Source of the DNA: Candidatus Giovannonibacteria bacterium
Lineage (GTDB): Bacteria; Patescibacteriota; Minisyncoccia; UBA11713; 2-01-FULL-45-33
Direction of reading: 5' to 3'
NCBI GenBank assembly: GCA_016176295.1
Contig: JACOXN010000009.1
Location: 3,798 to 67,797, forward strand
Length of the DNA stretch: 64,000 nt
Shown piece after piece: positions 6,298-54,309 of the stretch. The notes beneath the pieces are model-generated. The model saw only the letters and a program-made list of their open reading frames with translations, was not told where the DNA came from and did not search any database. How positions within the stretch are numbered: position 1 is the stretch's first letter; the number at the start of each line of letters is the position of its first letter. Position numbers and translations under genes: made by a program.

Positions 6298-7200
6298 ATG
6301 GCCAACCGGCACCTTTCAAGATCAATAGCGATGCAGTCCCTCTTTGAATGGGATTTCTATCATGTTAAAGGCGAGGAGAAAGACCTGCACGTTATTCTTG
6401 AACGCAACGTTGAAGAGTTTGCTCCCGGCCTTGAGGACGGCGCGTTCGCGGAAAAATTGGGCAGAGGTTATCTGGACCACAGTGAAGAAATAGACGACAT
6501 CATAACAAAAGCCGCTCCGGAGTGGCCTATTTTGCAGATAGCCCCGGTGGATAGGAATGTTCTCCGCATCGGACTTTTCGAGCTTCTTTTCGGCGAAAGG
6601 AAAGAAGTCCCTCCGAAAGTCGCCATCAACGAAGCCATCGAGCTTGCAAAATCGTTCGGCGGGGACTCATCCGGAAGATTCGTAAATGGCGTTCTGGGAA
6701 CCGTTTACCGCGAATTGGGCGAGCCGGGAAAGGATGACACGGGAAAGAAAAGATATGAGCTCGACCTCGATAAGCTTCCCAAGGAAGAGCTGGGAGGAGC
6801 CGTGGTTTTTAGGCGGGACGGGAAAAAAATAATGTTTGCTCTGGTGCACGACGTTTTCGGTCGCTGGACTTTTTCCAAGGGCCATCTTGAAATCGGCGAG
6901 GATATTGCAACCGGAACGATGAGGGAAATACGCGAAGAATTGGGAGTGGTGGACCTTGAATTGGTAAAACAAATAGGAGATAACGAATACATTGCATTGG
7001 ACCCGGAAACAGGCCCCACGAGGAGGCATGTCAGTTATTTTTTGGCAGAGACGAAAGACAGGGAGCTGAAACTGGAGAGCTCCGGCGGGCTCGACGACGC
7101 GCAATGGTTCACTTTGGATGATGTCCGCGAGCTTAAAATGTACGATGACATCAAGCCGATATTGGATAGGGCCGTTGAAGAATTAAAAATTAAAGGATAA
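6298..7200 (+). CDS. nusB: transcription antitermination factor NusB fused to a C-terminal Nudix hydrolase domain
   Basis: N-terminal: SRSIAMQSLFEWDF...VDRNVLRIGLFELLF...PPKVAINEAIELAKSFGGDSSGRFVNGVLG. C-terminal: a perfect Nudix box GHLEIGEDIATGTMREIREELGV at nt 6880-6948. Confidence 0.85.
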   Translation: MANRHLSRSIAMQSLFEWDFYHVKGEEKDLHVILERNVEEFAPGLEDGAFAEKLGRGYLDHSEEIDDIITKAAPEWPILQIAPVDRNVLRIGLFELLFGERKEVPPKVAINEAIELAKSFGGDSSGRFVNGVLGTVYRELGEPGKDDTGKKRYELDLDKLPKEELGGAVVFRRDGKKIMFALVHDVFGRWTFSKGHLEIGEDIATGTMREIREELGVVDLELVKQIGDNEYIALDPETGPTRRHVSYFLAETKDRELKLESSGGLDDAQWFTLDDVRELKMYDDIKPILDRAVEELKIKG

Positions 7201-7319
7201 TTTCAGCATCGCCACAAAAATTTTTTCAGCGCCGACGCCCGATTTTTAGGCCGTACCGGCCAAATTGATGGGCATTGGCTACAGGCCGAAAAAATTTTTA
7301 TGTCGAAGCTTCAAATAAT

Positions 7320-8012
7320 ATGTTCGACATCACAGGACTTGAAAAAAAGCTTAGCGTGTCTTTCAAAGATAAGCAGCTTTTGACGGCCGCTCTTACGCAC
7401 CGCTCCTACATCAATGAAAATCCGGCTACGAGCACCGGACACAACGAGCGGATGGAATTTTTGGGCGACGCCGTGCTGGAACTTGCCATAACGGAATATA
7501 TTTATGAAAAATTTCCCGAAAAACCCGAAGGCGAGCTGACCAGCCTCCGCGCTTCGCTGGTCAATGCCAACATGTTGGGTGACATCGCCAATGATCTCGG
7601 AGTGAACAGTTTTTTGCTACTGTCGCGCGGCGAGGCTAAAGATGTCGGCCGCGCGCGTCTTTATATTTTGGCGAACGCCATGGAAGCCATAATCGGCGCG
7701 ATGTATCTCGACCGCGGTTACGAAACGACCAAAGATTTCATCATTCGGATACTCGCCCCTAAAATCGGCCCGATACTTGAAAAAAAACTTTACCGCGACG
7801 CCAAAAGTCTCTTCCAGGAAGAAGCCCAGGATAAGGTCGGCATCACGCCTACATATGAAGTATCCAAAGAATGGGGGCCTGACCACGACAAACATTTTGT
7901 TATCGGTGTCTATTTGAACGGTGATCTGATAGCCGAGGGCGAAGGTCCTTCGAAACAGAGCGCGCAGCAGCAAGCCGCCGAAGCGGCTTTGAAAGCCAAA
8001 GGCTGGGGCTAA
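7320..8012 (+). CDS. rnc: ribonuclease III
   Basis: ALTHRSY...NERMEFLGDAVLELAITEYIY signature followed by a C-terminal dsRBD. I set the start at ATG 7320 (MFDITGLEKKL). Confidence 0.9.
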   Translation: MFDITGLEKKLSVSFKDKQLLTAALTHRSYINENPATSTGHNERMEFLGDAVLELAITEYIYEKFPEKPEGELTSLRASLVNANMLGDIANDLGVNSFLLLSRGEAKDVGRARLYILANAMEAIIGAMYLDRGYETTKDFIIRILAPKIGPILEKKLYRDAKSLFQEEAQDKVGITPTYEVSKEWGPDHDKHFVIGVYLNGDLIAEGEGPSKQSAQQQAAEAALKAKGWG

Positions 8013-8041
8013 TAAAAGATAAATTTTTTTCTTTTATAAAA

Positions 8042-8064
8042 AACCGCTGAAGTTTTCAGCGGTT
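8042..8064. terminator. hairpin terminator shared by the convergent rnc and 8056..9138 genes
   Basis: AACCGCTGAA-GTT-TTCAGCGGTT 10-bp stem. A T-run follows it on the minus strand and an A-run precedes it on the plus strand. Confidence 0.6.
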
Positions 8065-9138
8065 GAATTGTACAACGTTTTTTGTGGCCTTTGCCCATGC
8101 GTCCTCTTCCGGCACGTCCTCGAAAATTTCCCGGGCGGTGATTTTCGGCATCCTGACCGGCGGGAAAGTTCTCTGGAGATAATTCAGGGGTTCTTTGTAT
8201 TCGGGTTTTCCCGACTCGATTTTCATATGCAGCAGAACCGACAGTCCCATAAGGTGTTTGCGGTAAAACGGGACCGAATCCTTCGGACGATGGAACGGGT
8301 TGAACTCCGGGTTCAGTTTCATTATTGGAATTATTTCCGGCGCCCGAGTTTCGCCTTCCACTCCATGCGTGTTTAAGGGGCCATATGATTCTTCGACGTG
8401 AAAGTAGTAGTTTTCGTACGGGGTTCTGTTTTTTTCGTTCTTATCTCGGTTGGGAGAACTTTTGGCGCAAATGAGCGAGAATTTTGGAATGATATGGATA
8501 ACGCCGTTCACATTTTTCTCCGACCAGCAGGTCTGGCCGGTTTCTTCTGCATATTCGCGGGTGAGAGTTGCTGCCGCCATTCCGAAGGGTTCCCACAAGG
8601 ATTTTTCCCTGTTCCAGACCATATCCCAGACCTTGTTCTCTTTTCTGAGTTCCTCTTCGTCGAACGCGTCCCATTTTTCCATGTCGCCTGCGGGGAATCC
8701 GTATCCGTCCGGCTTTATGAATTTCCGGTTGCGGCACCAGGCCAAAAGTCCTTCCCAGCGGATGCCTTCGGGGGTTCCCGGCTGAACGTCTTTTTTGGCT
8801 TCGTTCACAATCGTTTTCCAGTCGAGAAGCGTGGGGCATTCAGCCGGGTAAGTGCTGAGAAAAATATAGACATCGTCCGGTGTCTCAACATTGAAATTCA
8901 AAAGTCGCTGGTCCATAACATATTTTACGGTCCGGTCCCATCTGAGCCAGGGGAGCTTTTCCGGGTGGCAGCCAGATTCGATGACTTCGAGCTCAAACCT
9001 TTTCCAATCGAGGAAAGACGGGCGTTCCGAGGGGTTTTCCATGAGCCATTTTTTGACCATGGTCTCGGTTTTTATGTTAAAAACAGCTAGTACTGAAGAT
9101 TCTCTTTCCAACTTTATGCCGAGAGCCATACCTTTCAT
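8056..9138 (-). CDS. hypothetical protein with two N-terminal sequence repeats and a degenerate Nudix-box-like motif
   Basis: 360-aa ORF with AAAGGAGAA upstream of the ATG. The repeats are ERPSFLDWKRFE...LPWLRWDR and ECPTLLDWKTIV...GIRWEGLLAW. The REYAEETG motif is present without a full Gx5Ex7 spacer. Confidence 0.6.
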   Translation of the reverse strand: MKGMALGIKLERESSVLAVFNIKTETMVKKWLMENPSERPSFLDWKRFELEVIESGCHPEKLPWLRWDRTVKYVMDQRLLNFNVETPDDVYIFLSTYPAECPTLLDWKTIVNEAKKDVQPGTPEGIRWEGLLAWCRNRKFIKPDGYGFPAGDMEKWDAFDEEELRKENKVWDMVWNREKSLWEPFGMAAATLTREYAEETGQTCWSEKNVNGVIHIIPKFSLICAKSSPNRDKNEKNRTPYENYYFHVEESYGPLNTHGVEGETRAPEIIPIMKLNPEFNPFHRPKDSVPFYRKHLMGLSVLLHMKIESGKPEYKEPLNYLQRTFPPVRMPKITAREIFEDVPEEDAWAKATKNVVQFNR

Positions 9139-9291: not shown

Positions 9292-11448
9292 ATGCTATTT
9301 ACGAGACTGGAAATCAACGGATTCAAATCGTTCGCCAAAGCGGTGGAGCTTGAGTTCCCTTCGCACATCGCAGCTATCGTCGGGCCCAACGGTTCCGGCA
9401 AATCGAATGTTGCCGATTCCATTCGCTGGGTGCTGGGGGAGCAATCGATGAAAAGCCTCCGAGGTAAAAAGGGCGAGGACCTTATTTTCGGGGGTTCGCC
9501 GCACGTCCCGAGGCTGGGGAAAGCTTCGGTTTCTTTGGTGTTCAACAATAATGAAAAAGTGTTCCCGTTGGAATTCAAGGAAGTCATAATGTCGCGCACG
9601 GTTTATCGCGACGGGGTCAATGAATATAAATTGAACAACTCGCCGGTCCGCTTAAAGGACATAATTGAGCTTCTTTCCAAGGTGGGGCTCGGAGCCTCGC
9701 AGCACCATATAATTGCACAAGGTGATTCGGACAGGATACTTTATTCGTCGCCCACGGAACGAAAATCAATGATTGAGGAGGCTCTGGGACTTAAGATATT
9801 CGAACTGAAAAAAGCGGAAGCGGAGAGAAAATTGGCCTCGACCGAGGCAAACATAAAGAACGTCGAATCTTTGAGGCGCGAAATACAGCCGCATTTAAAA
9901 TACCTGAATTCACAGGCTGAAAAAATGAAGAACGCCGCGGAGCTCCGGCGATCTTTGGAAGAGCTTTCGCGGGAGTATGTGGCGCGCGAGCTTGTTTCCA
10001 TAAAGACCGAGGAGGAAGAAATAAAAAAAGCAAAAGAGCCGCTGCAGAAAAAAATGCGGGAGCTTGAGGAAGCCGTCTCGAGGAGCGAGAAGATCATGGC
10101 CGGTGACTCGGATACCAGGGCTTTTTTTGAAGAATTAAAAAAACTGGACCACGCCCGCGATGCTATTTTAAAAAGGCGCTCGGAGATCGAGCGCGAGATA
10201 GGCCGGATGGAAGGCGAGGCCGCAAGAAAAGAAAAACCCGAAGGTCCGGATACGGTTTCGAAGCAGCATTTCAGGGATGTGTTAAAAGATATTCTCTCGG
10301 ACCTCGAAACCGCGAGCAATTCGGGTTCAATGGACACTTTGCGCAATTATATATTTGAAACGGTCCAGAAAATATATTCAATACTGGAAACTTTAAGCGG
10401 AGGTGCCAAGGAGAAATCGGCGCCTTCGGCCGAGGAAACAGTACCACTCGGTAAATTTAAAGAAGAATTGAAAGCTCTTGAAGAAGAAGAAAATAATATT
10501 TTGCGTTCCAAGCGCTCATTGGAAGAGCGGCATGAGACGAGCACCGCCGCCATACAAAAGGAAGGAATTTCCTATCGGGAGTTGACCTCGGAGCTTGCGC
10601 GTGCGCGGGACGAACTGCGTTCATTGGAAGCCAGGGAGGAAAGATGGCACATCCAGAAAAATGAGCTGGAAGTCGATTTTCACGACCGGCTGGGGCGAGT
10701 GGATGCCGCGGGAGAAGTTTTTTCGCCGGCTGACAGGGCCCAGCTCCGAAGAAAAATAGAGCGCGCGCGCATTTTACTTGAAGAAGCCGGAGGAGTGGAC
10801 GAAGGAGTGATCAAGGAATACGACGAAACGGCGAAGCGCGACGAATTCCTGGCCAAAGAACTGGACGACCTGAAAAAAGCCGCATCGCAAATGGGGGAGA
10901 TGCTCCAGGAGCTGCAAAATAAGATAGAAAAAGATTTTACCGCCGGCGTTGGCGAGATTAACAAGCTTTTCTCGGAATTTTTCCATGAGATATTCGGCGG
11001 AGGAAAAGCCTCACTCAAGATAATGGAGCCGAAAAAACCTGTCAGCAAAAATGAGGATGGGGGCGAAGACTGGGAAGGCGAGGAAGAAGTTGAATCCGGA
11101 CTCGATATCATAGTCGATATCCCGCGCAAGCGCATCCGCTCTCTCAATATGCTTTCAGGGGGTGAGCGAGCGCTTACATCTATTGCCTTGCTTTTTGCTG
11201 TCTCCACCGTTAATCCGCCTCCGTTTCTGGTGCTTGATGAAACTGACGCCGCTTTGGACGAGGCGAATTCCAATCGTTACGGCTCGATGCTGAAGGAATT
11301 GTCCAAGCGCACGCAGCTAATCGTGGTGTCCCACAACCGCGAAACCATGAAGTGCGCGGACGTTCTTTACGGTGTCACAATGGGTCCTGACGGCATTTCC
11401 CGCCTGCTCTCCGTAAAATTGGAGGATGCCAGCGTCTACGCGAAATAA
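9292..11448 (+). CDS. smc: SMC-family chromosome condensation ATPase, unusually short (718 aa) with no recognisable hinge
   Basis: N-terminal head LEINGFKSFAKAVELEFPSHIAAIVGPNGSGKSNVADSIRWVLGEQSMKSLRG. C-terminal head LSGGERALTSIALLFAV...LVLDETDAALDEAN. The middle is Glu/Lys/Arg-rich coiled coil only. Confidence 0.8.
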   Translation: MLFTRLEINGFKSFAKAVELEFPSHIAAIVGPNGSGKSNVADSIRWVLGEQSMKSLRGKKGEDLIFGGSPHVPRLGKASVSLVFNNNEKVFPLEFKEVIMSRTVYRDGVNEYKLNNSPVRLKDIIELLSKVGLGASQHHIIAQGDSDRILYSSPTERKSMIEEALGLKIFELKKAEAERKLASTEANIKNVESLRREIQPHLKYLNSQAEKMKNAAELRRSLEELSREYVARELVSIKTEEEEIKKAKEPLQKKMRELEEAVSRSEKIMAGDSDTRAFFEELKKLDHARDAILKRRSEIEREIGRMEGEAARKEKPEGPDTVSKQHFRDVLKDILSDLETASNSGSMDTLRNYIFETVQKIYSILETLSGGAKEKSAPSAEETVPLGKFKEELKALEEEENNILRSKRSLEERHETSTAAIQKEGISYRELTSELARARDELRSLEAREERWHIQKNELEVDFHDRLGRVDAAGEVFSPADRAQLRRKIERARILLEEAGGVDEGVIKEYDETAKRDEFLAKELDDLKKAASQMGEMLQELQNKIEKDFTAGVGEINKLFSEFFHEIFGGGKASLKIMEPKKPVSKNEDGGEDWEGEEEVESGLDIIVDIPRKRIRSLNMLSGGERALTSIALLFAVSTVNPPPFLVLDETDAALDEANSNRYGSMLKELSKRTQLIVVSHNRETMKCADVLYGVTMGPDGISRLLSVKLEDASVYAK

Positions 11449-11451
11449 CTC

Positions 11452-11473
11452 ACTTAGCAATCCGATTGCCAAG
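11452..11473 (+). repeat. 22-nt REP-like imperfect palindrome, 5' copy flanking RAYT-1
   Basis: ACTTAGCAATCCGATTGCCAAG, with stem CTTAGCAATC/GATTGCCAAG (one A-C mismatch). It starts 4 nt after the smc stop. Confidence 0.8.
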
Positions 11474-11503
11474 TACGGGTTTCAGCCATATAATACTGAC
11501 ATT

Positions 11504-12151
11504 ATGAGAAAATTCAGATTTGTGAACGGAGAGTATTATCATATTTACAATCGGGGTGTTGAAAAGAGGATAATTTTTTCTGATCAATATGATTTTGATA
11601 GATTTTTGCAGTGTTTGAACGAGTTCAATTCGGTGAAACCTATTGGTAGTATTTTTGAGAATTCCTTTAAAAAAGGCCAACTTAGTAATAAGATTACCAA
11701 GTTGGTGGATGTTGTATGCTATTGTCTCAATCCTAATCACTATCATATAATTCTGCGCCAACGCGTTGATAATGGTATTAGTGAATTTATGCGAAGGATT
11801 GGAACCGGATTTACGCAACATTTTAATATTAAATATCGAAGAACTGGAGTACTTTTTCAAGGCAAGTTCAAAGCAAAGCACGTAGACTCAAACGAGTATT
11901 TAACGCATCTCAGTGCGTATGTGAATTTGAATAACAAAGTACATAAAATAAAGGGTGATATGGAATTCAGATCGAGTTGGAAAGAATATCTTTCGCCGTC
12001 CGATAAAACTCACAAATTATGTAGTTCCAGCCTTATTCATGATCAATTTGATACTCTAGACGAGTATAAAAACTTTTCTTTAAATTCTTTGGGCAATATT
12101 TTAAAACGAAAACAGCTATTCAAAGAAATGGAAGAACTGCTATTTGATTAA
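11504..12151 (+). CDS. REP-associated tyrosine transposase (RAYT; IS200/IS605 Y1 HUH family), copy 1
   Basis: YHIYNRGVEKR, HUH motif NPNHYHIIL, GFTQHFNIKYRRTGVLFQGKFKAKHV and catalytic Tyr in LSAYVNLN. I set the start at ATG 11504 (MRKFRF). Confidence 0.8.
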   Translation: MRKFRFVNGEYYHIYNRGVEKRIIFSDQYDFDRFLQCLNEFNSVKPIGSIFENSFKKGQLSNKITKLVDVVCYCLNPNHYHIILRQRVDNGISEFMRRIGTGFTQHFNIKYRRTGVLFQGKFKAKHVDSNEYLTHLSAYVNLNNKVHKIKGDMEFRSSWKEYLSPSDKTHKLCSSSLIHDQFDTLDEYKNFSLNSLGNILKRKQLFKEMEELLFD

Positions 12152-15671: not shown

Positions 15672-17486
15672 ATGAATTCAAAAGAACTGCGCCGTAAATT
15701 CCTGGTTTTTTTTGAGAGTAGGGGACACAAAATCGTGCCGTCGTCTTCGCTTATTCCTGATGATCCCTCGGTGCTTTTGACCACGGCCGGGATGCAGCAG
15801 TTCAAGCCGTACTTAACCGGCAAGGCGGATCCGTTTAAAGATTTTGGCAGTAGAAATGTTTTTTCAATCCAAAAAAGTTTCCGTACCACAGACATCGATG
15901 AAGTGGGAGATTTTTCGCATTTGACTTTTTTTGAAATGGTCGGGAATTTTTCTTTCGGTGGCTATTTTAAGGAAACCGCGATTCCGTTGAGTTTTGAATT
16001 TTTAACCTCAGTAATGAGTATTGACCCCAAGAAAATTTTTGTTACCGCATTCAAGGGAGATGAGGAAGTGCCCCGCGACGAAGAAGCCATAACTCTGTGG
16101 CAGGAGCAATTCAAAAAAGTAGGTATGGAGGCAAAGATAGGGGAAAGGATTTATCTGTATGGCCGTGAAAAAAATTGGTGGGAAGCTGGACCTGGACCTG
16201 CCGGACCCGATGCCGAGATGTTTTATGACTTCGACATACCGCATGATACGGCTTTCGGCAAGGAGTGCCATCCAAATTGCGACTGCGGGCGTTTCGTGGA
16301 GATTGGGAACGATGTTTTCGTGCAGTACAACAAAACCAAAGAAAGTAAATATGAACCGCTGGCGCAAAAAGCCATAGACAACGGACGCGGCTTTGAACGG
16401 CTTGTTATGGTTGCGCAGGGAAAGAAAAATATTTTTGAAACAGATCTTTTTGCTCCGTATTTTGAACTTCTGCCCGCAGAACTCGAACTAAGGATCAAAA
16501 GAATAATTGTGGACCATTTGCGGGGGAGCGCTTTTCTTATCTCTGCCGGAGTGCGGACATCCAACAAAGAAGCCGGATATGTGTTGAGACGACTTTTGCG
16601 CAGGGTGTTTGTTTATGAAAAACAGGCAAAATTACCGGACCATCTTTTGAATTCCATTGTCCACGACCTCGTGCATGACTACGGCGAATTTTACGATGAA
16701 CTTTTGAAGAACGCGGATATTATCCGCGAGGAAATAGAGAAAGAGAAAGAAAAATTTTCAAAAACGCTGGAACTGGGTGTGAAAGAATTAAATAAAGCCG
16801 CTGAGTTGGATGCCGCGTCCGCATTTAAATTGTACGAAACTTACGGTGTTCCTTATGAAATTATTAAAGAAATGGGCGGAGAAAGGGCCGTATCTTTGAA
16901 ACGCGAGGATTTTGAAAAAGAATTTGAAAAGCATCAGGAAATTTCCCGCGCCGGAATTGAAAAAAAATTCGGCGGCCACGGACTTATTTTAGACACGGGA
17001 GAATTGAAAGCGGCCAATGAAGAAGAACTGCAAAAGGTAACCCGGCTACACACGGCCACGCACCTGATGCAGGCCGCCTTAAGAAAAGTCTTGGGTGAAG
17101 GAGTTAAACAGGCCGGCTCAGACATAACAGTAGAGCGGACGCGTTTCGATTTTTCTTTTGTAAGGAAACTGACTGACGAAGAATTAAAAAGAGTTGAGGA
17201 ACTCGTCAATTTTGCCGTCAAGCAAAAGTACAGCGTGGATAAAAAAGAGATGCCTTTTGAGGATGCGGTGAAGTCGGGGGCTCTGCATTTTTTCAAGGAA
17301 AAATACCCGCCGGTCGTCAGCGTCTATTCCGTGGGGCATTTCAAGGCTGACCCGCCCGAGGTGTTCTCGCGCGAGCTTTGCGGAGGACCGCACGTGAAAA
17401 ATACCGCCGAAATAGGCAGCTTCAAAATATTGAAACAGGAAGCGGTGGGCTCCGGCCTCCGCCGCATCCGCGCGACGGTTGAATAA
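15672..17486 (+). CDS. alaS: alanyl-tRNA synthetase, short form (604 aa) ending after the editing domain, with no C-Ala domain
   Basis: FFESRGHKIVPSSSLIPDDPSVLLTTAGMQQFKPY. Editing-domain motifs HTATHLMQAAL and CGGPHV. It ends GSGLRRIRATVE. Confidence 0.9.
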   Translation: MNSKELRRKFLVFFESRGHKIVPSSSLIPDDPSVLLTTAGMQQFKPYLTGKADPFKDFGSRNVFSIQKSFRTTDIDEVGDFSHLTFFEMVGNFSFGGYFKETAIPLSFEFLTSVMSIDPKKIFVTAFKGDEEVPRDEEAITLWQEQFKKVGMEAKIGERIYLYGREKNWWEAGPGPAGPDAEMFYDFDIPHDTAFGKECHPNCDCGRFVEIGNDVFVQYNKTKESKYEPLAQKAIDNGRGFERLVMVAQGKKNIFETDLFAPYFELLPAELELRIKRIIVDHLRGSAFLISAGVRTSNKEAGYVLRRLLRRVFVYEKQAKLPDHLLNSIVHDLVHDYGEFYDELLKNADIIREEIEKEKEKFSKTLELGVKELNKAAELDAASAFKLYETYGVPYEIIKEMGGERAVSLKREDFEKEFEKHQEISRAGIEKKFGGHGLILDTGELKAANEEELQKVTRLHTATHLMQAALRKVLGEGVKQAGSDITVERTRFDFSFVRKLTDEELKRVEELVNFAVKQKYSVDKKEMPFEDAVKSGALHFFKEKYPPVVSVYSVGHFKADPPEVFSRELCGGPHVKNTAEIGSFKILKQEAVGSGLRRIRATVE

Positions 17487-17831: not shown

Positions 17832-17855
17832 AACCTGAAAGCAGGTTGTTTTTTT
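17832..17855 (+). terminator. terminator-like hairpin immediately upstream of the aminotransferase RBS (possible attenuator)
   Basis: AACCTG-AAAG-CAGGTT followed by a T7 run. It ends ~12 nt before the GGAGG site. Confidence 0.4.
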
Positions 17856-17875
17856 CTATTTTCAACGGAGGCTTT

Positions 17876-19234: not shown

Positions 19235-19299
19235 CACTTGGGGTTTTTTTATCCCCGTATTTTCTTTTGGCGGGGGAGTTTTTGACTTATAATATAATC

Positions 19300-20439
19300 A
19301 TGTTGAATTTTTTGACTTCGCGAACAAGCTTTGCAGGAACAAAATTACTTGCCATAGACGTAGGCACCGCCTCACTCTCGGCGGTCTTGGCTGCCGAAGA
19401 ACACGGTGGGAAGCTCAAGATATCGAAAGTTTTCCGCTTTCCTTTCAACCTGCTTATCGAAGGCCCGAAAAAACAAAGCGCCAATGCAGTTCTTTCGAAC
19501 CTAAAAAAAGTTTTTGCGGAGGCGGCGAGAGCCGAGCCGGAAGTTAAAAAGATACTCATAAGTTTTTCAGACCCTTTAGTTTCCGAGCGCGCTTTGCGGC
19601 ATATTGTCGAGCGTAAACCGCCGTTCACTCCGATATCTGAATCTGAAATAAAATTTGCTATCGACGAAGCGGCCGGAAAGCTTTCGTCTGAGAACCCGTC
19701 CCTGGTTGCCGCCAAAAAAGAAATACTCGGCGCATCTGTCAATGGTTACGCGGTCACGAGCCCGGTTAATTACCGCGGCAAATTTTTTGGGATAAACGTT
19801 CTTTTTACTTTTATCTCGGAGCTTTTAAAGAAACAGGCGGACGAAGCGCGCGAACACTTTTATCCGGCTGCCGGATTATGTTTTTTTTCCGATGCCAGAG
19901 TGGTCTTCAACACGTTGAAAGGCACCCAAAACCTATCCGAGCCGCTGGTTCTCGCGGACATCGGGGGAGAGGTCACTTCCGTTTTCCATGTGAGCGGCGA
20001 CGAACTCCGTCAGGCGGAGCCCGTCGCTTTCGGTGTAAGGACTCTGGAGCGCAGAGCCTCGGTCTTCTTTAAGACCGATTTTTCTGAAGCCGAGTCTATT
20101 TTAAAAAAACATTTGGCCGGCACTTTGGACACTGCTCTTGAGGAAAAAGCGGCCCGCTTCCTGGATTCCGCTCTGGAAGATTGGAGAGTCGAATTAAAAA
20201 AACACATCGATTTCTTTGGGGAAAAAACAAAGAAAATAATGCTGACGGGCGGAGGAGGCGACCTTTTGGTTTTTACAGATGCCGTAAAAAAAGAATTCGG
20301 AGCGGTCATGCCGGAAACCGGGATTCAATCGCTTAAAGCCGAGGCTTTAAAAGATCATTTCGTTTCTCTGGAGAATTTAAGCGGCGGGAAAGACGTTATT
20401 TTAGCGTCACTTTTATCATATTGCCGCGATATATGCTAA
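19300..20439 (+). CDS. pilM: actin-like ATPase, type IV pilus assembly protein PilM-like
   Basis: LLAIDVGTASLSAVL phosphate-1 motif. It is the first gene of the pilus cluster. I discarded the upstream part of ORF 18985..20439, which overlaps the aminotransferase. Confidence 0.6.
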   Translation: MLNFLTSRTSFAGTKLLAIDVGTASLSAVLAAEEHGGKLKISKVFRFPFNLLIEGPKKQSANAVLSNLKKVFAEAARAEPEVKKILISFSDPLVSERALRHIVERKPPFTPISESEIKFAIDEAAGKLSSENPSLVAAKKEILGASVNGYAVTSPVNYRGKFFGINVLFTFISELLKKQADEAREHFYPAAGLCFFSDARVVFNTLKGTQNLSEPLVLADIGGEVTSVFHVSGDELRQAEPVAFGVRTLERRASVFFKTDFSEAESILKKHLAGTLDTALEEKAARFLDSALEDWRVELKKHIDFFGEKTKKIMLTGGGGDLLVFTDAVKKEFGAVMPETGIQSLKAEALKDHFVSLENLSGGKDVILASLLSYCRDIC

Positions 20440-26858: not shown

Positions 26859-26871
26859 GGTAGGAGTATAT

Positions 26872-26892: not shown

Positions 26893-26935
26893 AAGAGCTT
26901 TAATTCATGCTAGAGTAATGAGGTATAATATATTT

Positions 26936-42352: not shown

Positions 42353-45274
42353 ATGGCTTTCTATGATCATCAAAAAATCGAGAAGAAATGGCGCAAAGAG
42401 TGGGCCAAAAAGAAACTCTACGGCGCTCCTGACCGGCCCAAGGCCGGCCAGCCTCGGGCTGAAAACTTTTATGCTCTTGTCGAATTCCCTTATCCTTCGG
42501 GCAATCTTCACACTGGCCATTGGTACGCTTTTTCGGTGCCGGATATTTTTGTGCGGTTAAAAAGGATGAAAGGAATGAATGTCATGTTCCCGATGGGGTT
42601 CGATGCTTTCGGACTTCCGGCGGAGAACGCCGCTATCAAAAGAGGGCTTAACCCGAAAAAATGGACTTATGAAAATATCGCCTACATGAAAAAACAGCTG
42701 GATTCCATGGGCGCTTCTTTCGACTGGTCGCGGGAAGTAATAACCGCCGACCCGGAATACTATAAATGGACCCAGTGGATTTTTTTGCAATTTTTAAAGA
42801 ATGGGCTCGCGTATCAGGCGGAAACTGCGGTTAATTGGTGTCCTAAGGACAAAACCGTCCTCGCAAACGAGCAGGTCGTTAATGGCCGCTGCGACAGGTG
42901 CGGGGCGGAAGTGGAGCAGAGAAAAATGAAACAGTGGATGCTTAAGATAACCGACTATGCGGAGAAACTACTTTCCGGTCTGGAAAAACTCGATTGGAAA
43001 GAAGAAATAAAAGAAGCGCAGAGGAATTGGATAGGGAAGAGCGAGGGGGCACTTCTTAAATTTCCAATTTCCAATTCTCAATTTTCAATTGATGTATTTA
43101 CAACCAGACCCGATACGCTTTTTGGAGCTACATATCTTGTGCTCGCGCCGGAGCATGAATTTATAGAAGAGCATAAATTACAGATAACAAATTACAAAGA
43201 AGTAAAAGAATATATAGAAAAAGCTAAAAGAAAAACTCAGCTGGAACGGCAAAAAGGCGAAAAGGAAAAAACCGGCGTGGAATTGAAAGGCATCAAAGCG
43301 ATAAACCCCGCGAATGGCGAGGAAATCCCGATTTGGATTGCGGATTATGTTCTCTCCGGTTACGGCACCGGGGCGATTATGGCCGTTCCGGCGCATGATG
43401 AGCGAGATTTTGAGTTTGCTGAAAAATTTCGCCTGCCGGTAGTAAATGTAATTGAGCCAATCTTTGGCGCACCGCAGGGCGATGAAGTTAAAAAAAAAGC
43501 TGTTATCTCGGCCGTCCGTGACCCAAAAACCGATAAAATTATTGTGCTCAATTGGGGACCGCGCCAATCTAGACACGGAGGGAATATGCTTATTGGAGGG
43601 ACGATGAATGAAGGAGAAGAAATAGAAACGACTGCCCGGCGTGAAATTGCCGAAGAAACCGGATATACGGATCTCAAACTGATAAAAAAGTCGGATGTTA
43701 CCGGTCACGGTTACTTTTATTCCAATACAAAAAATCATAATGTACATGTGGATGCTTATGGATTGTATTTTGAACTCCAGAGCGAAAAAAAACAGAAAAC
43801 TAATCTTGACCACGGAGAAAAAGAAAAATTTTCAGTTGAGTGGCATCCGGTTAGTAATGTTGCCGACATGCTTCACGATGGCATACATGAATATTTTTTC
43901 CGTACTATGGTGTTGGGCGAGATTTGTAAAAAAAATGGTGTTTTGACAAACTCGGGGAAGTTCGACGGAATGGATTCCGGAAGCGCCGGAAAAGCTATAA
44001 TAGAATTCGTCGGAGGCAAAAAAGTTACACAATACAAACTTAGGGACTGGGTGGTCTCCCGCCAGCGCTATTGGGGAGTTCCGATTCCCGTCATACATTG
44101 TTCAAAGTGCGGCGCAGAACCTGTGCCGGACAAGGATCTGCCGATAAAGCTCCCGGATATAAAAGACTATCTTCCGACAGGCGAGGGTAAATCGCCTCTC
44201 GCAAAAGCCGAAAAATGGGTAAAAACAAAATGCCCCTCATGCAAAGGTTCGGCCGAAAGGGAAACCGATACTTTGGATACGTTCGTGGATTCTTCATGGT
44301 ATTTTTTGCGCTACATCGATCCGAAGAACAAAAAGAAATTCGCTGCAGGTGAAAAGATGAAGCTATGGATGCCGGTCGACCTGTATTCCGGGGGCGCAGA
44401 ACACACGACCATGCATCTTCTTTATTCCAGATTCTGGTACAAGGCGATGTTCGATTTAGGCTTACTTGGCGGCGAAGCCGCCAAGTTGGGGGATGAACCT
44501 TTTAAAATGAGAAAAAACCGCGGATTGGTTCTGGGACCCGATGGACAAAAAATGTCTAAATCAAAAGGGAATGTTATCGACCCCGACGAATACGTAAAAA
44601 AACTTGGTTCGGATACCGTGAGGATGTATCTTGCTTTTCTGGGCCCGTATGACCAGGTGGGTTCCTATCCCTGGGACCCGCAGGGTATATTGGGCATCCG
44701 CAGGTTTTTGGACCGGGTTTGGAAAATGGGCGCGTCCTCTTCTAAATTTTCAGTTCTCGCGCCTTCCGTTTCGCTCGAGGACGCGATTATACTGATCAAA
44801 CATTTCCACAAAACCATAAAAAAAGTAGGCGAGGATATCGAGAACTTTCGTTTCAATACGGCAATTTCCGCGCTGATGATATTGTTGAATGAGATGGAAA
44901 AAAGTCAGGTCTCACGGGAAAATTTTGAGACCTTTATAAAACTCTTGGCGCCTTTTGCGCCGCATATGACCGAAGAACTTTGGCATAAGCTGGGGGACAA
45001 GTCGGCCCAAGGCCGACCAGCCTTGGGCTGGAAATCTATTCACTTGGAATCGTGGCCCGAATTCGACCCAAAGCAGCTTGAAGAGGATTTTTTCGAGCTG
45101 ATCGTTCAGATAAACGGCAAATTGCGCGATACTTTCAGGATTAGCCGTGGAATTTCACAAGCGGAAGCGGAGAAATTGACACTCGCTCGTGAAAAAGTTA
45201 AACTGGCACTAGAAAATAAAAAACCGCGGAAAATTATTTATGTGCCGGGAAGGCTCATAAATTTTGTGGTATAG
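42353..45274 (+). CDS. leuS: leucyl-tRNA synthetase carrying an internal Nudix hydrolase domain
   Basis: FPYPSGNLHTGH, AVPAHDERDFEFA, RDWVVSRQRYWGVPIP and KMSKSKGN. The insert is at about aa 370-528 and has a perfect Nudix box GGTMNEGEEIETTARREIAEETGY. Confidence 0.9.
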   Translation: MAFYDHQKIEKKWRKEWAKKKLYGAPDRPKAGQPRAENFYALVEFPYPSGNLHTGHWYAFSVPDIFVRLKRMKGMNVMFPMGFDAFGLPAENAAIKRGLNPKKWTYENIAYMKKQLDSMGASFDWSREVITADPEYYKWTQWIFLQFLKNGLAYQAETAVNWCPKDKTVLANEQVVNGRCDRCGAEVEQRKMKQWMLKITDYAEKLLSGLEKLDWKEEIKEAQRNWIGKSEGALLKFPISNSQFSIDVFTTRPDTLFGATYLVLAPEHEFIEEHKLQITNYKEVKEYIEKAKRKTQLERQKGEKEKTGVELKGIKAINPANGEEIPIWIADYVLSGYGTGAIMAVPAHDERDFEFAEKFRLPVVNVIEPIFGAPQGDEVKKKAVISAVRDPKTDKIIVLNWGPRQSRHGGNMLIGGTMNEGEEIETTARREIAEETGYTDLKLIKKSDVTGHGYFYSNTKNHNVHVDAYGLYFELQSEKKQKTNLDHGEKEKFSVEWHPVSNVADMLHDGIHEYFFRTMVLGEICKKNGVLTNSGKFDGMDSGSAGKAIIEFVGGKKVTQYKLRDWVVSRQRYWGVPIPVIHCSKCGAEPVPDKDLPIKLPDIKDYLPTGEGKSPLAKAEKWVKTKCPSCKGSAERETDTLDTFVDSSWYFLRYIDPKNKKKFAAGEKMKLWMPVDLYSGGAEHTTMHLLYSRFWYKAMFDLGLLGGEAAKLGDEPFKMRKNRGLVLGPDGQKMSKSKGNVIDPDEYVKKLGSDTVRMYLAFLGPYDQVGSYPWDPQGILGIRRFLDRVWKMGASSSKFSVLAPSVSLEDAIILIKHFHKTIKKVGEDIENFRFNTAISALMILLNEMEKSQVSRENFETFIKLLAPFAPHMTEELWHKLGDKSAQGRPALGWKSIHLESWPEFDPKQLEEDFFELIVQINGKLRDTFRISRGISQAEAEKLTLAREKVKLALENKKPRKIIYVPGRLINFVV
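42434..42461 (+). repeat. GC-rich palindromic 28-mer, copy 1, in-frame in the leuS 5' region
   Basis: CGGCCCAAGGCCGGCCAGCCTCGGGCTG, translated as ..RPKAGQPRAE.. Confidence 0.7.
45003..45030 (+). repeat. GC-rich palindromic 28-mer, copy 2, in-frame in the leuS 3' region
   Basis: CGGCCCAAGGCCGACCAGCCTTGGGCTG (26/28 identical to copy 1). It is read in a different frame as ..SAQGRPALGW.., with stem CCCAAGGC/GCCTTGGG. Confidence 0.7.
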
Positions 45275-45607: not shown

Positions 45608-46174
45608 ATGATGTTAAAAGTGCCCGAATTGCTGAAGAGCCCGAATTTTTGGTCGGGACTGCGGATATGGGGAACGTTCATTCTCCTGTTCGTCTTGAAA
45701 TACGACCCGGCCGTCGAAGCTTTTGGTTGGAGTGTAATAGGTTTATGGTTTTTCCTTTTTCTGGTTTTCACCGACGGCCTGGACGGCTGGCTCGCGCGTA
45801 AACTGGATAGAGAAAGCCGAATCGGTATCTGGCTTGATCCTCTGGCTGACAAAGTGCTCGTTTTGGCTGTGTTATTCTTTTTTTGGTCCGAAGGTACTGT
45901 GCGCGGGTGGATATTATATCCGCTCGCGCTGCGGGAGATTTTCGTTACCGTAAAAAGATGGGCCTTTTTAAGGCGCGGCTTCAACATGCCTGCGAATAGA
46001 ATGGGGAAATTAAAAGCCAGTGCGGAATATACCGCTGCGGCGCTTTTTATCTTGGGGCGCGTGGAATTCATTATTTTAGGAAATTTAGCGCTCGCCATAT
46101 CTTTATTTCTCGCATTTGCCTCTTTGTTCAAGTTTAGGCCATCAATGAAAGTTAAGGAGAAAAATATCACATGA
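45608..46174 (+). CDS. pgsA: CDP-alcohol phosphatidyltransferase (PgsA-like)
   Basis: DGLDGWLARKLDRESRIGIWLDPLADKV matches D-x2-DG-x2-AR-x8-G-x3-D-x3-D. Confidence 0.85.
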   Translation: MMLKVPELLKSPNFWSGLRIWGTFILLFVLKYDPAVEAFGWSVIGLWFFLFLVFTDGLDGWLARKLDRESRIGIWLDPLADKVLVLAVLFFFWSEGTVRGWILYPLALREIFVTVKRWAFLRRGFNMPANRMGKLKASAEYTAAALFILGRVEFIILGNLALAISLFLAFASLFKFRPSMKVKEKNIT

Positions 46175-47316
46175 TATACAAAGATCCGCTTTACGGCCCG
46201 TGGGTGCTGCCTACCTATCTGAAAGAGCTGCTCCATACCAAAGAAACGTTGAGGACAAGAGGCATCGCCCAGGCGTCTTCTCCTGCGCATCTTTTGACGT
46301 TCGTCGCCCGGAACCGCGTCCAGCATGGGCTTGGAGTTGCGCGGCTTATGGCCGAAGTCGTAAAACACAACCGCTGCGATCTGGACGAAGAGCTGATGGT
46401 TTCGTCGGCGTTTCTCCACGATTTCGGAAATACCCCGTTCTCGCATTTGTGCGAAGATTTCCTGCAGGAAATGATCGGGAAGAACGGCGAGACTTTTCTT
46501 GAAAATATCCTCGACTGTTCGGAGACCGAAAAGGTTTTGGCCGGATTCGGAGTTGCTTCGCGTGATGTCGTTAAGATTGTCGCCGGCCAGGCCAAACCAA
46601 TGTCGGACGTTTTGAACGGCGATATCGACGTCGACAACTTGGATAACATTCTGGGATTCAATAAATTTGCCGCAGTTGAAGCTCCCGCGTATGACGCGCT
46701 CGGAATAGCCGGTTCATTTCGGTTTATGGACGGACATTGGCTGCTTTTGGGAGACTGCTACGCAGATGTCCAAAAGTGGCAGATAGCCCGCAGAGCGGCT
46801 TACATGGATGTCGTTTACAGTTCTCCGCATTATAACGGCATTTCCATGCTCTACAGGGCTGTGGAGCTTGCGCTTTACGAAGGCGAGATATCTCCGGAAT
46901 TTTTCCGCTTCAGCGATATTGAAGCCATTTCTTATCTCATGACTTGCAATCCGCGGACGATTGAACTGGTGGACAAAATGTCCAGATGGAAATGGTATCC
47001 GGAAGTCGCAAGCTGGGAAATAAAAGAGCCGTCCAGGTTCGTTGCGAAGATCGCGGCGTGCACCCATCGGCGGCGCAAGCTCTTGGATGAGATATGCGGA
47101 ACGCTTGGAATTGCACCGGAAAAGATCTGCCTGGCCATGCAAAGAGGCGTCGAGACAAAGCGCATCAAGACACCGTTTTTGGTAGAATGCGGACGAAAGC
47201 TTCAAGGTACTAAATTTGAACGTCCGCCTTTGCGGGTCAGGGTCTTCGTTTCTCCGGAATGGCAATTTAAAAAGCCGGAGATAGAGGCGATTATAAGCAA
47301 TAACTTTCACATCTGA
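46171..47316 (+). CDS. HD-domain phosphohydrolase (COG1078 / SAMHD1-like dNTPase family)
   Basis: YKDPLYGPWVL...RNRVQHGLGVARL...SAFLHDFGNTPFSH. ATGA overlap with pgsA. Confidence 0.7.
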   Translation: MIYKDPLYGPWVLPTYLKELLHTKETLRTRGIAQASSPAHLLTFVARNRVQHGLGVARLMAEVVKHNRCDLDEELMVSSAFLHDFGNTPFSHLCEDFLQEMIGKNGETFLENILDCSETEKVLAGFGVASRDVVKIVAGQAKPMSDVLNGDIDVDNLDNILGFNKFAAVEAPAYDALGIAGSFRFMDGHWLLLGDCYADVQKWQIARRAAYMDVVYSSPHYNGISMLYRAVELALYEGEISPEFFRFSDIEAISYLMTCNPRTIELVDKMSRWKWYPEVASWEIKEPSRFVAKIAACTHRRRKLLDEICGTLGIAPEKICLAMQRGVETKRIKTPFLVECGRKLQGTKFERPPLRVRVFVSPEWQFKKPEIEAIISNNFHI

Positions 47317-49222: not shown

Positions 49223-49750
49223 ATGGATATTTTTGCTCACGCGCTCTGGACGGGCGCGGCATATAAAACTGTTCCTAAAGAAAAATGGAGCGCCAAGAAA
49301 GTCTGGCTTTCGGTTTTTTTTGGCGTGGCTCCGGACCTTTTTTCTTTCGGTATATTATTTGTCAGTTATTTTTTGCAAAAGGGATTGAAGCGTCCGGAAT
49401 TTCTGACTCAGGGGCCGCCGCCGATGAGTCTGATACCGGATTACGTTTCGGTCGCGTATAATTACACTCACAGTTTGATTATTTTCTCGCTGGTTTTTTT
49501 GATAGCATTGATGATTTATAAAAAACCTTTCTGGCCTTTGGCTGCCTGGGGACTCCATATTTTGATAGATATTCCCACTCACACGTCGGCATTTTTCCCG
49601 ACGCCCTTTTTGTGGCCGTTCTCCAGTTTTAAAGTGAGCGGAATCTCCTGGGGGAATCCCTGGTTTATGCTGGTCAATTACTCGGCAATAATTTTGGCCT
49701 ATCTTTTAATTTTCTTGAGAAAAAATAAAAAAAGCGCTACTATGGAATAA
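49223..49750 (+). CDS. polytopic membrane protein, possibly a YdjM/DUF457-like metal-dependent hydrolase
   Basis: 175 aa beginning MDIFAHALW, with HILIDIPTH and 4-5 TM helices. The family call is tentative. Confidence 0.5.
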   Translation: MDIFAHALWTGAAYKTVPKEKWSAKKVWLSVFFGVAPDLFSFGILFVSYFLQKGLKRPEFLTQGPPPMSLIPDYVSVAYNYTHSLIIFSLVFLIALMIYKKPFWPLAAWGLHILIDIPTHTSAFFPTPFLWPFSSFKVSGISWGNPWFMLVNYSAIILAYLLIFLRKNKKSATME

Positions 49751-52571: not shown

Positions 52572-52627
52572 ACTTTAAGTTTATTAATATTATATTTAAT
52601 AAGGCATATTAACATTTTCTTCATCAA

Positions 52628-53197
52628 ATGTCAAGTGTTAAAAAACCCTCATATTTCAACGTTTCAACACCCATTTTGGCGGAAGAACTTCTGGGAAAAT
52701 TTCTCGTCCGCAGCTTGGAAAATAAAACTATAGCGCTAATGATAACCGAAGTCGAGGCATATGAAGGCTTCGCGGATAAAGCATCGCACGCGTCGCGCGG
52801 GCGCACATTGAGGAATGAGCCTATGTTTGGCGAGGCGGGGCGTTGGTATGTATATTTTACCTATGGCATGCATTGGATGCTGAATATCGTGGCCGGGCCG
52901 AAAGACTATCCCGCGGCGGTTTTGATTCGTGGCGTCAGAAGTCCGACTTCTCTCAAACTTGAGAGAAGTCGGACTTCTGACGTTATAAATGGTCCGGCCA
53001 AACTCACTAAATTTTTAAAAATAGACGGAAAACTGAACGGAAAGCTTGCAGCCATTGAGTCTGGTTTATGGATAGAAGACAGAGGAGTGAAAATAAAACC
53101 AATCGAAATAAAAAAAAGCCCGCGGGTAGGAGTTTCCTACGCGGGTCCGTATTGGGCTCGGCGAAATTGGAGGTTTTATCTTAAAGACAGCGTGTAA
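52628..53197 (+). CDS. mpg: DNA-3-methyladenine glycosylase (Mpg/AAG family)
   Basis: LLGKFLVR, ITEVEAYEGFADKASHASRGRTLRNEPMFGEAGRWYVYFTYGMHWMLNIV, AAVLIRG and NGPAKLTKFL. Confidence 0.85.
   Translation: MSSVKKPSYFNVSTPILAEELLGKFLVRSLENKTIALMITEVEAYEGFADKASHASRGRTLRNEPMFGEAGRWYVYFTYGMHWMLNIVAGPKDYPAAVLIRGVRSPTSLKLERSRTSDVINGPAKLTKFLKIDGKLNGKLAAIESGLWIEDRGVKIKPIEIKKSPRVGVSYAGPYWARRNWRFYLKDSV
52934..52981. repeat. REP family 2 inverted doublet (perfect 23-bp arms, 2-nt spacer) inside the mpg CDS, in frame
   Basis: GTCAGAAGTCCGACTTCTCTCAA-AC-TTGAGAGAAGTCGGACTTCTGAC. It is 48 nt (16 codons) and is translated VRSPTSLKLERSRTSD. Confidence 0.85.
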
Positions 53198-54309
53198 TTT
53201 TCATATCGCGGATCTTTGGTGACTTCTTTCGTTCTGCCGAGCCATTTGGAAATTGAGACCTTGCTGTTCTCTTCGGTGACCTCTATCTCCAGAATCTGCA
53301 GACCATGCAGCCTTTTGGGCTCCAGGAACGTATCCAGCTCGAAGTACTGGTTGTCCGACAAAAAACAGGTTCGGATTTTTTTGAGGGTGTCGTGGATCGG
53401 GCTTCGCGTTTTCAACAAACTGTAAAATTTTGACGAACTTATCCGTTCCTCCCGTTCTTCGCGTGCGCCTTCCGTGATATGCGTTTTGAAAGTCTGGTAG
53501 TAAACCGAATCGTTTCCTTGAGTTCTTTTCCTTGCCCTGCTTTCCCAGCCGTCATGCTGCGCCATGTAAGCTTGCTCTATCACAAAATGTTCACAGTGTA
53601 CGGGGAGAGAGGTATGGTCGACTTGGGACCGCAAAAGGAATTTCTTTTCTATCTCGAGTACAACCGGCACGCCTATTATCCGCTGTATCTCCGCGAGCAT
53701 TCTTCGCATCTTACCCCTGAACAAAGTGGAGTTGTCTATCACTCTTAAGTGCGGGTGCCCAACCCAGATTTTTTTCGAACGGTCATCTGCCGCCCTGGCT
53801 TCGTCGAGTGTCTTTTCAAAACGCGCTTCGTTATTCTCCAGGGTGTAGAATTTTTCTTTGCCGTAAGCGGCGGTTACCAGGAAGATACCGCCGCCGTAAC
53901 GCTTTTCTCTCAGGTCGGATTTTTTGAGTCCTCTTAATTTCAGGTACCGCGCCTGTTCTTCCTCCGTCATGTAAGCGAATGCGCTGATGCAGGCGCGGTC
54001 CGGGATCAGGATTTTCTTCCGCCCTTTCTTTATGTTTAGGAGCGGCTTGAATACCCGGTCTTCGAGATAAAATTGCATGTCGATCATTGCGCATTCGAAG
54101 TTAAAGAAGGCTTCACGTCCGTATTTCTCGATGATCTCCGGGGGTTTCATGCCGAAATGATTTATCAGCAAAGTGGCGGCTTCCGGGGTCGTAGCTACCG
54201 CGATACCGGAGTTGGTCAGTTTTTCAAAAGCATAATTCAAACCGGTCGTTTTGCCGCTGCAGGGCCCCCCGTCCAATGGCACGACGATTATGTCATCCTT
54301 TTCTTTCAT
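53176..54309 (-). CDS. P-loop NTPase (AAA_28/nucleoside-kinase-like) fused to a C-terminal CYTH (triphosphate tunnel) domain
   Basis: Walker A LDGGPCSGKTTG. CYTH motifs in order: EIEKKFLL, SRARKR, EEREERI, KIRTCF, FELDTF and ILEIEV. The 3' end overlaps the mpg 3' end by 22 nt (convergent). Confidence 0.75.
   Translation of the reverse strand: MKEKDDIIVVPLDGGPCSGKTTGLNYAFEKLTNSGIAVATTPEAATLLINHFGMKPPEIIEKYGREAFFNFECAMIDMQFYLEDRVFKPLLNIKKGRKKILIPDRACISAFAYMTEEEQARYLKLRGLKKSDLREKRYGGGIFLVTAAYGKEKFYTLENNEARFEKTLDEARAADDRSKKIWVGHPHLRVIDNSTLFRGKMRRMLAEIQRIIGVPVVLEIEKKFLLRSQVDHTSLPVHCEHFVIEQAYMAQHDGWESRARKRTQGNDSVYYQTFKTHITEGAREEREERISSSKFYSLLKTRSPIHDTLKKIRTCFLSDNQYFELDTFLEPKRLHGLQILEIEVTEENSKVSISKWLGRTKEVTKDPRYENYTLSLR

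Follow-up and report, generated by a model that had tools for sequence, protein, structure and literature searches.

A 64-kb stretch of DNA (64,000 nucleotides (nt); hereafter the window) from contig JACOXN010000009.1 of a Candidatus Giovannonibacteria bacterium, which belongs to the Patescibacteria or Candidate Phyla Radiation (CPR), encodes three core information-processing proteins that each carry an additional hydrolase domain: a fusion of NusB with a Nudix domain, an isoleucyl-tRNA synthetase (IleRS) with an inserted histidine phosphatase (His_Phos) and a leucyl-tRNA synthetase (LeuRS) with a Nudix domain inside its editing domain. The reading preferred here, held with moderate confidence, is that the window is a piece of ordinary chromosome and that the fusions are three separate, older and lineage-wide bifunctional proteins, not one system at the scale of the window. 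Domain architectures, catalytic-residue conservation, distribution, synteny and the turnover of cassettes are observed, while the substrates and the tethering are inferred. Few proteins in biology are as conserved as aminoacyl-tRNA synthetases and NusB, and extra catalytic domains inside them are, to our knowledge, rare in bacteria and usually the mark of a new function.

All three genes are single, uninterrupted, in-frame open reading frames (ORFs) with intact catalytic motifs, and they lie where the first-pass annotation of the sequence had placed them. That annotation had also taken the density of hydrolases as a non-random pattern at the scale of the window; a cluster peculiar to the window was not borne out, as the co-location mirrors gene density and each of the fusions is lineage-wide. 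The gene content is that of a typical small patescibacterial chromosome, with several aminoacyl-tRNA synthetases, type IV pilus genes, SMC, RNase III, GlmS and CTP synthase, and since translation and transcription genes are dense in a genome of ~0.65-0.85 Mb, the occurrence of the fusions within 48 kb is not a locus-level property. No tRNA genes or Rfam families were found in the 64 kb. The core motif RE[hydrophobic]xEExG was observed three times, with 0.01 expected in a window proteome of ~19,200 residues; the pooling of five hydrolase superfamilies was a post hoc grouping. The window as a single “system” or island was rejected because the fusions are each found elsewhere in a conserved context of their own.

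The fused and inserted hydrolase domains

The NusB-Nudix fusion is a protein of 300 residues encoded on the forward strand (6298-7200), with the NusB part at nt 6316-6711, the Nudix domain at nt 6799-7167 and the Nudix box at nt 6880-6948. The NusB part matches Pfam PF01029 over residues 7-138 (E = 3.5e-32) and NCBIfam TIGR01951 with a score of 119.9 against a cut-off of 88, and the C-terminal domain matches PF00293 over residues 168-290 (E = 2.8e-17; 63.4 bits against a cut-off of 21.1) and contains a canonical box, GHLEIGEDIATGTMREIREELGV, that follows the superfamily pattern GX5EX7REUXEEXGU. Both domains were present in all of the 120 best homologues, which have 60-100% identity and are named Giovannonibacteria, Niyogibacteria or “Patescibacteria group”, and throughout these orthologues (P0125-P0244) both EE residues and the Arg of the box are invariant. 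Public annotation gives only the names of the host proteins, such as “NusB” or “class I tRNA ligase family protein”, and even P0125, which is 100% identical to the window protein, is listed at NCBI only as the transcription antitermination factor NusB of Candidatus Giovannonibacteria.

The gene lies in a conserved order, rpmF-nusB::nudix-rnc-smc, that begins with the gene for the 81-residue ribosomal protein bL32 (rpmF, 5995-6240, forward strand), recognizable by its CxxC...CxxC L32 signature, and continues directly 3' of the fusion with the RNase III gene (rnc, 7275-8012, forward strand; Pfam Ribonucleas_3_3 E = 6.6e-38, dsrm E = 3.2e-16). The same order of bL32, nusB::nudix, rnc and smc is seen in the complete genomes CP066687.1 (651 kb) and CP066691.1 (837 kb). 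Ribosomal_L32p (PF01783) is found at the matching position in L081 and L082, the loci of these two genomes, in the latter of which nusB::nudix and rnc overlap by 4 nt. The window keeps this order except for an opposite-strand orphan gene between rnc and smc.

A sequence search of the PDB gave Thermus thermophilus Ndx1 (E = 8e-9), human NUDT2 and the Aquifex, Caenorhabditis elegans and lupin diadenosine tetraphosphate (Ap4A) hydrolases as the best solved relatives of the NusB Nudix domain. The top nine matches (E = 8e-9 to 3e-4) were all hydrolases of diadenosine polyphosphates, Ap(n)A, or their close relatives, with no match at equivalog level, while Dcp2 and NUDT12 were weaker PDB matches and the NCBIfam matches to NudC/RppH were weak. 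By sequence, the domain probably belongs with the Ap(n)A-hydrolase/RppH-like group. NusB would tether it to the rRNA antitermination/elongation complex, and there it would hydrolyse either local Ap(n)A or the polyphosphate linkages at the 5' ends of growing transcripts (5'-ppp or Np(n)N caps), beside processing by RNase III.

The IleRS gene (27761-31201, forward strand) encodes 1146 residues and reaches 856 bits with the NCBIfam ileS model TIGR00392 (cut-off 621). The insert (residues ~487-695, nt ~29219-29845) is placed between WRCAACG (residue 464) and CRCGG (residue 707) in the Zn-knuckle hairpin that follows connective peptide 1 (CP1), and the WTTTPW, GDDDF and KMSKS motifs of the synthetase are intact. 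Its residues 493-659 (nt 29237-29737) match His_Phos_1 (PF00300; E = 1e-26, 94.3 bits against a cut-off of 21.7), and the signature elements of branch 1 histidine phosphatases are present as MRHG, the RHG of which starts at nt 29246, LRTKQT, GEVNTG and VVSHEY. Membership in the dPGM equivalogs was not found, with scores of 73.6 against 225 for dPGM_arch, 42 against 316 for PRK01295 and 39 against 261 for GpmB. A side observation concerns the host enzyme, in which the class I “HIGH” signature (residues ~61-67, nt ~27941-27961) reads GVHH, not HxGH; among ~45 full-length IleRS homologues with the insert, 10 share this G[IVL]HH variant and the rest have a normal HYGH, HMGH or HPGH.

Homologues of the insert were sought with HMMER through all of 1.84 billion representatives (50% identity clusters) at E ≤ 1e-30. 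The scan returned 150 representatives, most of which align over both the flanks and the insert (residues ~470-760 of proteins of ~1150-1200 residues), with both IleRS flanks present in 87, and the IleRS::His_Phos family amounts to at least 150 clusters at 50% identity. The protein homologues gathered for the synthetase queries were those of less than 500 residues, which makes the counts of synthetase fusions lower bounds. The catalytic residues are very well conserved, with no exception for the Arg and His of RHG (135/135 sequences) or the second Arg (145/145) and two exceptions each for the acidic residue (E/D; 142/144) and the distal His (148/150); together with the residues of the LeuRS insert described below, they indicate that the embedded domains are not catalytically dead, a possibility raised in the first-pass annotation. 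The insert is present in every one of the 16 metagenomic relatives whose IleRS core is 59% identical or more, and IleRS proteins that have no insert align to the window IleRS over a gap from residue 486 to 696.

Phosphatases of the same clade are also found outside IleRS. In two unrelated metagenomic contigs a stand-alone gene precedes an insert-less IleRS gene, by 72 nt in one (L102:5001-8566) and by ~180 nt in the other (L106:1445-4203 / L107:583-2504), which represents a “split” form of the gene that is fused in the window, and the order in the first of them (ArgRS, x, His_Phos, IleRS, x, RecO) agrees with the IleRS-RecO order of the window. A further member of the clade is fused to Sua5/YrdC (P0011; L104:1964-3292, L105:974-2302), the enzyme of the first step in the synthesis of the tRNA modification threonylcarbamoyladenosine (t6A), and is neighboured by genes for the CCA-adding enzyme, TGT and queuosine salvage. 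Another, the stand-alone P0021 (L103:5001-7156), has a TsaD-family gene ~750 nt away, and its contig carries the archaeal-type markers S27a and RIO1. The link between IleRS and the phosphatase is non-random: at least 150 clusters show the two fused, and two unrelated contigs have them as separate neighbouring genes. The fusion, together with the neighbourhood conserved when the genes are unfused, therefore argues for a real and specific functional coupling of this clade to Ile-tRNA/t6A biology. The IleRS phosphatase would remove a phosphomonoester, for which the candidate substrates are a nucleotide by-product, for example AMP, a tRNA end bearing a 2'/3'-phosphate or a phosphorylated residue within IleRS itself.

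LeuRS (42353-45274, forward strand; 973 residues; 999.5 bits against a cut-off of 548 with NCBIfam TIGR00396, leuS_bact) carries its Nudix domain in the CP1 editing domain, where the insert (residues 372-530, nt 43466-43942) stands in for a loop that spans residues 365-377 in the T. thermophilus enzyme. The NUDIX match covers residues 382-513 (nt 43496-43891; E = 1.1e-12, 48.6 bits against a cut-off of 21.1), and the box, GTMNEGEEIETTARREIAEETGY (nt 43598-43666), is canonical for the Nudix superfamily; residues E60, E63 and E64 do not vary among the homologous LeuRS Nudix inserts of 23 species. The HTGH, FTTRPDT, HDERD and KMSKS motifs of the synthetase are intact. An exact look-up found no database entry identical to this LeuRS. 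The idea that the inserts substitute for a lost editing function was rejected because the CP1 editing motifs are unimpaired.

The distribution of the LeuRS inserts was followed in the best 80 loci (L001-L080) from a scan of GTDB species genomes. At the site used in the window, about 24 GTDB species among these loci have an insert of ~165 residues that contains a canonical Nudix box, and they include the closest relatives, L001 and L002; the Nudix domain is absent from the equally close LeuRS L022, L025, L026 and L051. Among the LeuRS loci listed, the insert most similar to that of the window (38%) belongs to Candidatus Onthousia faecigallinarum, a member of the Bacillota from the chicken gut (L018:3998-6817), in which a canonical Nudix likewise occupies this site, and the feature therefore reaches beyond the Patescibacteria.

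Nudix is one of several domains that enter LeuRS at three hot spots, after residue 243 (nt ~43081), at residues 372-530 (nt 43466-43942) and after residue 586 (nt ~44110), the third of which lies inside the CxxC...CxxC knuckle and is the structural equivalent of the IleRS insertion site. The domains seen there are Nudix and a GHSLG alpha/beta serine hydrolase of a single family, each of which occupies two of the sites, HAD_2, a Ham1-like ITPase, DUF559 (E = 1e-34), an Aminoglyc_resit ANT(2'')-like nucleotidyltransferase (E = 7e-5) and several that were not recognized. Identities of insert and core are discordant in both directions, with the insert less conserved than the core in some pairs (window/L001, core 76% and insert 24%; L024/L041, 72% and 18%) and more conserved in others (L001/L003, insert 76% and core 57%; L004/L063, 99% and 90%). 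The inserts are therefore under purifying selection, yet are replaced or exchanged between lineages.

As a single sequence, the LeuRS Nudix domain matched only AtNUDX1 in the PDB (E = 4e-3), and a profile of 23 sequences gave an uncharacterised MutT/Nudix protein, ADP-ribose pyrophosphatase and NUDT12 as best matches; in neither the single-sequence nor the profile search were Ap4A hydrolases preferred, and membership in the Ap(n)A-hydrolase subgroup was not found. A derivation from the NusB Nudix or from a free-standing Nudix was considered and rejected, since the similarity is only generic. The LeuRS Nudix would be one of many exchangeable accessory-enzyme cassettes in three permissive loops of patescibacterial LeuRS. 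It would most likely act autonomously, as a “house-cleaning” or detoxifying hydrolase co-expressed with, and kept near, an abundant essential enzyme; a dedicated role in Ap4A hydrolysis is unlikely.

Broader readings and rival explanations

Several points weigh against regarding the three fusions as established, lineage-wide bifunctional enzymes. RK or RR replaces RE in the box of 37 of the 120 NusB-Nudix orthologues, the window copy being canonical, and the Nudix domain may therefore bind rather than hydrolyse in part of this family, in which catalysis may have been altered or lost. The best solved relative of the IleRS phosphatase is a phosphoserine phosphatase, at E = 4e-9 only, and the LeuRS Nudix resembles just generic Nudix structures. 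The sampling of LeuRS was biased to insert-bearing sequences, one of the six search patterns lying inside the Nudix box itself. Within open-access full text, no paper was found on NusB-Nudix, LeuRS-Nudix, IleRS-histidine phosphatase or insertions in CPR aminoacyl-tRNA synthetases. PMC5424206 was checked and is unrelated.

Beyond the reading of three separate bifunctional proteins, a broader one can be put forward tentatively, in which class Ia synthetases serve as docking platforms and the phosphatase clade, as a dedicated partner of IleRS and the t6A enzymes, provides a hitherto unrecognised auxiliary dephosphorylation step. The docking part of this proposal would apply to the Patescibacteria and some other bacteria with reduced genomes, in which small enzymes would enter, swap and vanish at fixed hot spots. 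The auxiliary step would be a dephosphorylation in Ile-tRNA/t6A metabolism, or a form of self-repair of the translation apparatus against toxins that phosphorylate or pyrophosphorylate its components. What makes the fusions worth pursuing is the apparently active phosphatase that has long resided in one IleRS lineage (at least 150 clusters) and is adjacent to IleRS even when unfused, the Ap(n)A-hydrolase/RppH-like domain on NusB, beside RNase III, in a large part of the CPR, and the changing set of hydrolase cassettes carried by LeuRS. If their substrates were found, these proteins could expose a new maintenance or repair step in the translation and rRNA transcription of the large, mostly uncultured Patescibacteria, and would be a clear case from nature of domains inserted into enzymes that are essential.

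A rather unlikely explanation is that the embedded enzymes arose from biological conflict and guard the translation apparatus against toxins or antibiotics. Their activities would be to strip pyrophosphate or phosphate put on the CCA end of tRNA by toxic alarmone-synthetase-like enzymes, to undo HipA-type phosphorylation of the synthetase, or to inactivate antibiotics that mimic aminoacyl-adenylates or target the ribosome. The fast turnover of cassettes and their exchange between closely related LeuRS cores speak for it, as do the presence of one alpha/beta hydrolase family at two different LeuRS sites and the resistance-type Aminoglyc_resit ANT(2'')-like (E = 7e-5) and nuclease-type DUF559 (E = 1e-34) domains, although the ANT-like matches are weak. 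Every host protein binds RNA or tRNA, the LeuRS Nudix being located in the editing domain, where the CCA end is received, and the IleRS with an embedded GNAT in NCBIfam NF040702 offers a parallel, GNATs being known to detoxify aminoacyl-nucleotide antibiotics. However, the IleRS phosphatase is stably inherited and not swapped, being present in 16/16 close relatives, and no toxin or defence genes flank the loci in the window.

Still less probable is the explanation offered in the first-pass annotation, namely that the disposal of dinucleoside polyphosphates or alarmones was moved onto the enzymes that produce them, the aminoacyl-tRNA synthetases and the transcription complex, in place of free-standing ApaH/NudH. 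Synthetases do produce Ap4A from aminoacyl-adenylate, Ap4A/Ap6A hydrolases are the nearest solved relatives of the NusB Nudix, and catalytic residues are kept in all three modules. In addition, a gene for a YdjM-like membrane protein (49223-49750) follows glmS in the window at the very position where L001 and L002 have a free-standing Nudix of 146 residues (L001:10408-10848 and L002:6098-6538), whose best PDB matches are NUDT2-type Ap4A hydrolases (E ~1e-12). The same two relatives, however, hold a LeuRS-Nudix alongside this free-standing enzyme, and thus retain a stand-alone, Ap4A-hydrolase-like enzyme of the kind that the fusions were supposed to replace. IleRS and LeuRS are also reported to be weak producers of Ap4A beside LysRS and PheRS. 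Branch 1 histidine phosphatases are phosphomonoesterases or mutases and not dinucleoside-polyphosphate hydrolases, cleaving phosphomonoesters rather than the anhydride bonds of Ap4A, and because of this family chemistry the IleRS insert is unfit for Ap4A hydrolysis. The LeuRS Nudix has no affinity to Ap4A hydrolases and shares its sites with esterase, nuclease-like and nucleotidyltransferase cassettes, a variety that does not fit a dedicated Ap4A function. A clean-up role thus fits the NusB module weakly, and neither the IleRS phosphatase nor the LeuRS Nudix, and the three fusions are probably not a dedicated Ap4A-disposal system.

It is very improbable that the inserts are neutral relics, functionless passengers in permissive loops left as a by-product of gene fusion during genome streamlining, because even though they lie in surface loops of variable length among LeuRS, have no recognisable domain at the same site in L015, L017, L021 and L029 and deviate at one box residue in a third of the NusB-Nudix orthologues, their catalytic residues are essentially invariant over 23 LeuRS species and over 150 or more clusters of IleRS whose divergence goes beyond 50% identity, they are conserved in close pairs as much as the synthetase core or more, and the His_Phos-IleRS neighbourhood is kept where the genes are unfused.

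Other proteins of the window

The gene that interrupts the conserved order between rnc and smc encodes an orphan of 360 residues on the reverse strand (8056-9138), which had been described as a degenerate Nudix protein. Its REYAEETG is indeed present and is unlikely to be there by chance alone (0.01 expected), yet a Nudix identity was not upheld, as the protein has no upstream GX5E and its hhalign comparison with a Nudix profile gave a probability of 6.9%, the control giving 97.9%. No match to it was found in Pfam (even at E ≤ 5), NCBIfam, PADLOC or PHROGs, and the last two also had no match to the window's other unassigned proteins. In L081 and L082 rnc is followed directly by smc, and the orphan therefore looks like a lineage-specific insertion. 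The single-sequence AlphaFold2 models of this protein and of the GGGKFDHH protein were too poor for use, with values of 35.5 and 38.7, respectively, in the predicted local distance difference test (pLDDT). The latter protein (4994-5971, forward strand, 325 residues) lies outside the 48 kb to which the first-pass annotation had assigned it, and the label “MYG1-like” was not substantiated, with no Pfam UPF0160 match at E ≤ 5 and no match in Pfam, NCBIfam, the PDB, PADLOC or PHROGs.

Two more of the proteins that had been grouped with the fusions could be placed with greater precision. The free-standing HD-domain protein (46171-47316, forward strand; Pfam HD E = 6.5e-5, HD_assoc_2 E = 1e-3) contains the motif FLHDFGNTPFSH and had been called SAMHD1-like, which stands at the level of the dGTPase/SAMHD1 superfamily but not of the family: the NCBIfam dGTPase models match residues 46-112 only, with 27-28 bits against cut-offs of 152-467, full-length membership was not found, and the PADLOC dGTPase match (E = 4e-9) spans residues 46-106, i.e., the HD motif only. 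The P-loop NTPase-CYTH fusion (53176-54309, reverse strand) was confirmed, with AAA_28 at nt 53728-54273 by Pfam (E = 2.1e-9) and a C-terminal CYTH half at nt ~53182-53661 that matches NeuTTM NE1496 (PDB 2fbl/3typ) end to end over residues 4-151 (E = 9e-7 and 2e-6) and has the EIEKKF (ExExK) motif of triphosphate tunnel enzymes. The Pfam CYTH model gave no match to this protein, and the domain was recovered by the PDB sequence search. The CYTH half also matches phrog_6660, a phage protein family (E = 2e-16).

A few features elsewhere in the window were noted in passing. Two ORFs of ~240 residues, at 11426-12151 (forward strand) and 26166-26894 (reverse strand), have weak matches to IS200-like Y1 transposases (E = 7e-6 and 2e-7) and flank a block from 12 kb to 26 kb that holds MnmA, AlaRS and type IV pilus genes. 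AlaRS (15672-17486, forward strand) is just 604 residues long, with the catalytic and SAD domains and apparently without the C-terminal C-Ala domain. The listed forward-strand ORFs 17846-19234 (class-III aminotransferase) and 18985-20439 (PilM/FtsA-like) overlap by ~250 nt, and the true start of the PilM/FtsA-like gene is probably further downstream than that of the listed ORF.

Comparison with known systems

The nearest characterised counterparts of the NusB Nudix are the Ap(n)A hydrolases and RNA pyrophosphohydrolases of the Nudix superfamily (Ndx1, NUDT2, Aquifex aeolicus Ap4A hydrolase and Escherichia coli RppH/NudH), with which it shares the canonical box; the likeness to Ap(n)A hydrolases extends over the whole domain (E = 8e-9 to 7e-6). 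Unlike these enzymes, the window domain is fused to NusB, is encoded beside rnc and falls far under the NCBIfam cut-offs for RppH and NudC, and one third of its orthologues have RK for RE. The P-loop-CYTH protein resembles the triphosphate tunnel metalloenzymes, its C-terminal domain aligning end to end with NeuTTM NE1496 and sharing ExExK. Plant TTM1/TTM2 combine an N-terminal P-loop domain with CYTH, and the window protein likewise has an N-terminal P-loop, which is of the AAA_28 type; it has no tie to translation or transcription proteins.

For the IleRS insert, the RHG, R, E, H core is shared with branch 1 histidine phosphatases such as Hydrogenobacter thermophilus iPSP1 (4ij5), fructose-2,6-bisphosphatase, dPGM and SixA, and the bifunctional RNase H/acid phosphatase NF005567 is a precedent for the fusion of this phosphatase fold to a nucleic-acid enzyme. 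The window domain differs from known branch 1 phosphatases in its location inside IleRS and in scoring under every equivalog cut-off. Free-standing trans-editing and accessory hydrolases (AlaX, YbaK/ProX and D-Tyr-tRNA deacylase) are also hydrolase modules attached functionally to aminoacylation, but they act on aminoacyl esters and share homology with editing domains, whereas the modules in the window have phosphohydrolase folds and the native CP1 motifs are intact. An analogous architecture is that of the IleRS with embedded GNAT (NCBIfam NF040702, ileS_w_GNAT), likewise a class Ia synthetase with an extra enzyme domain inside the polypeptide; the window IleRS is no member of that family (303 against a cut-off of 1999), and the enzyme embedded in it is a histidine phosphatase instead of a GNAT.

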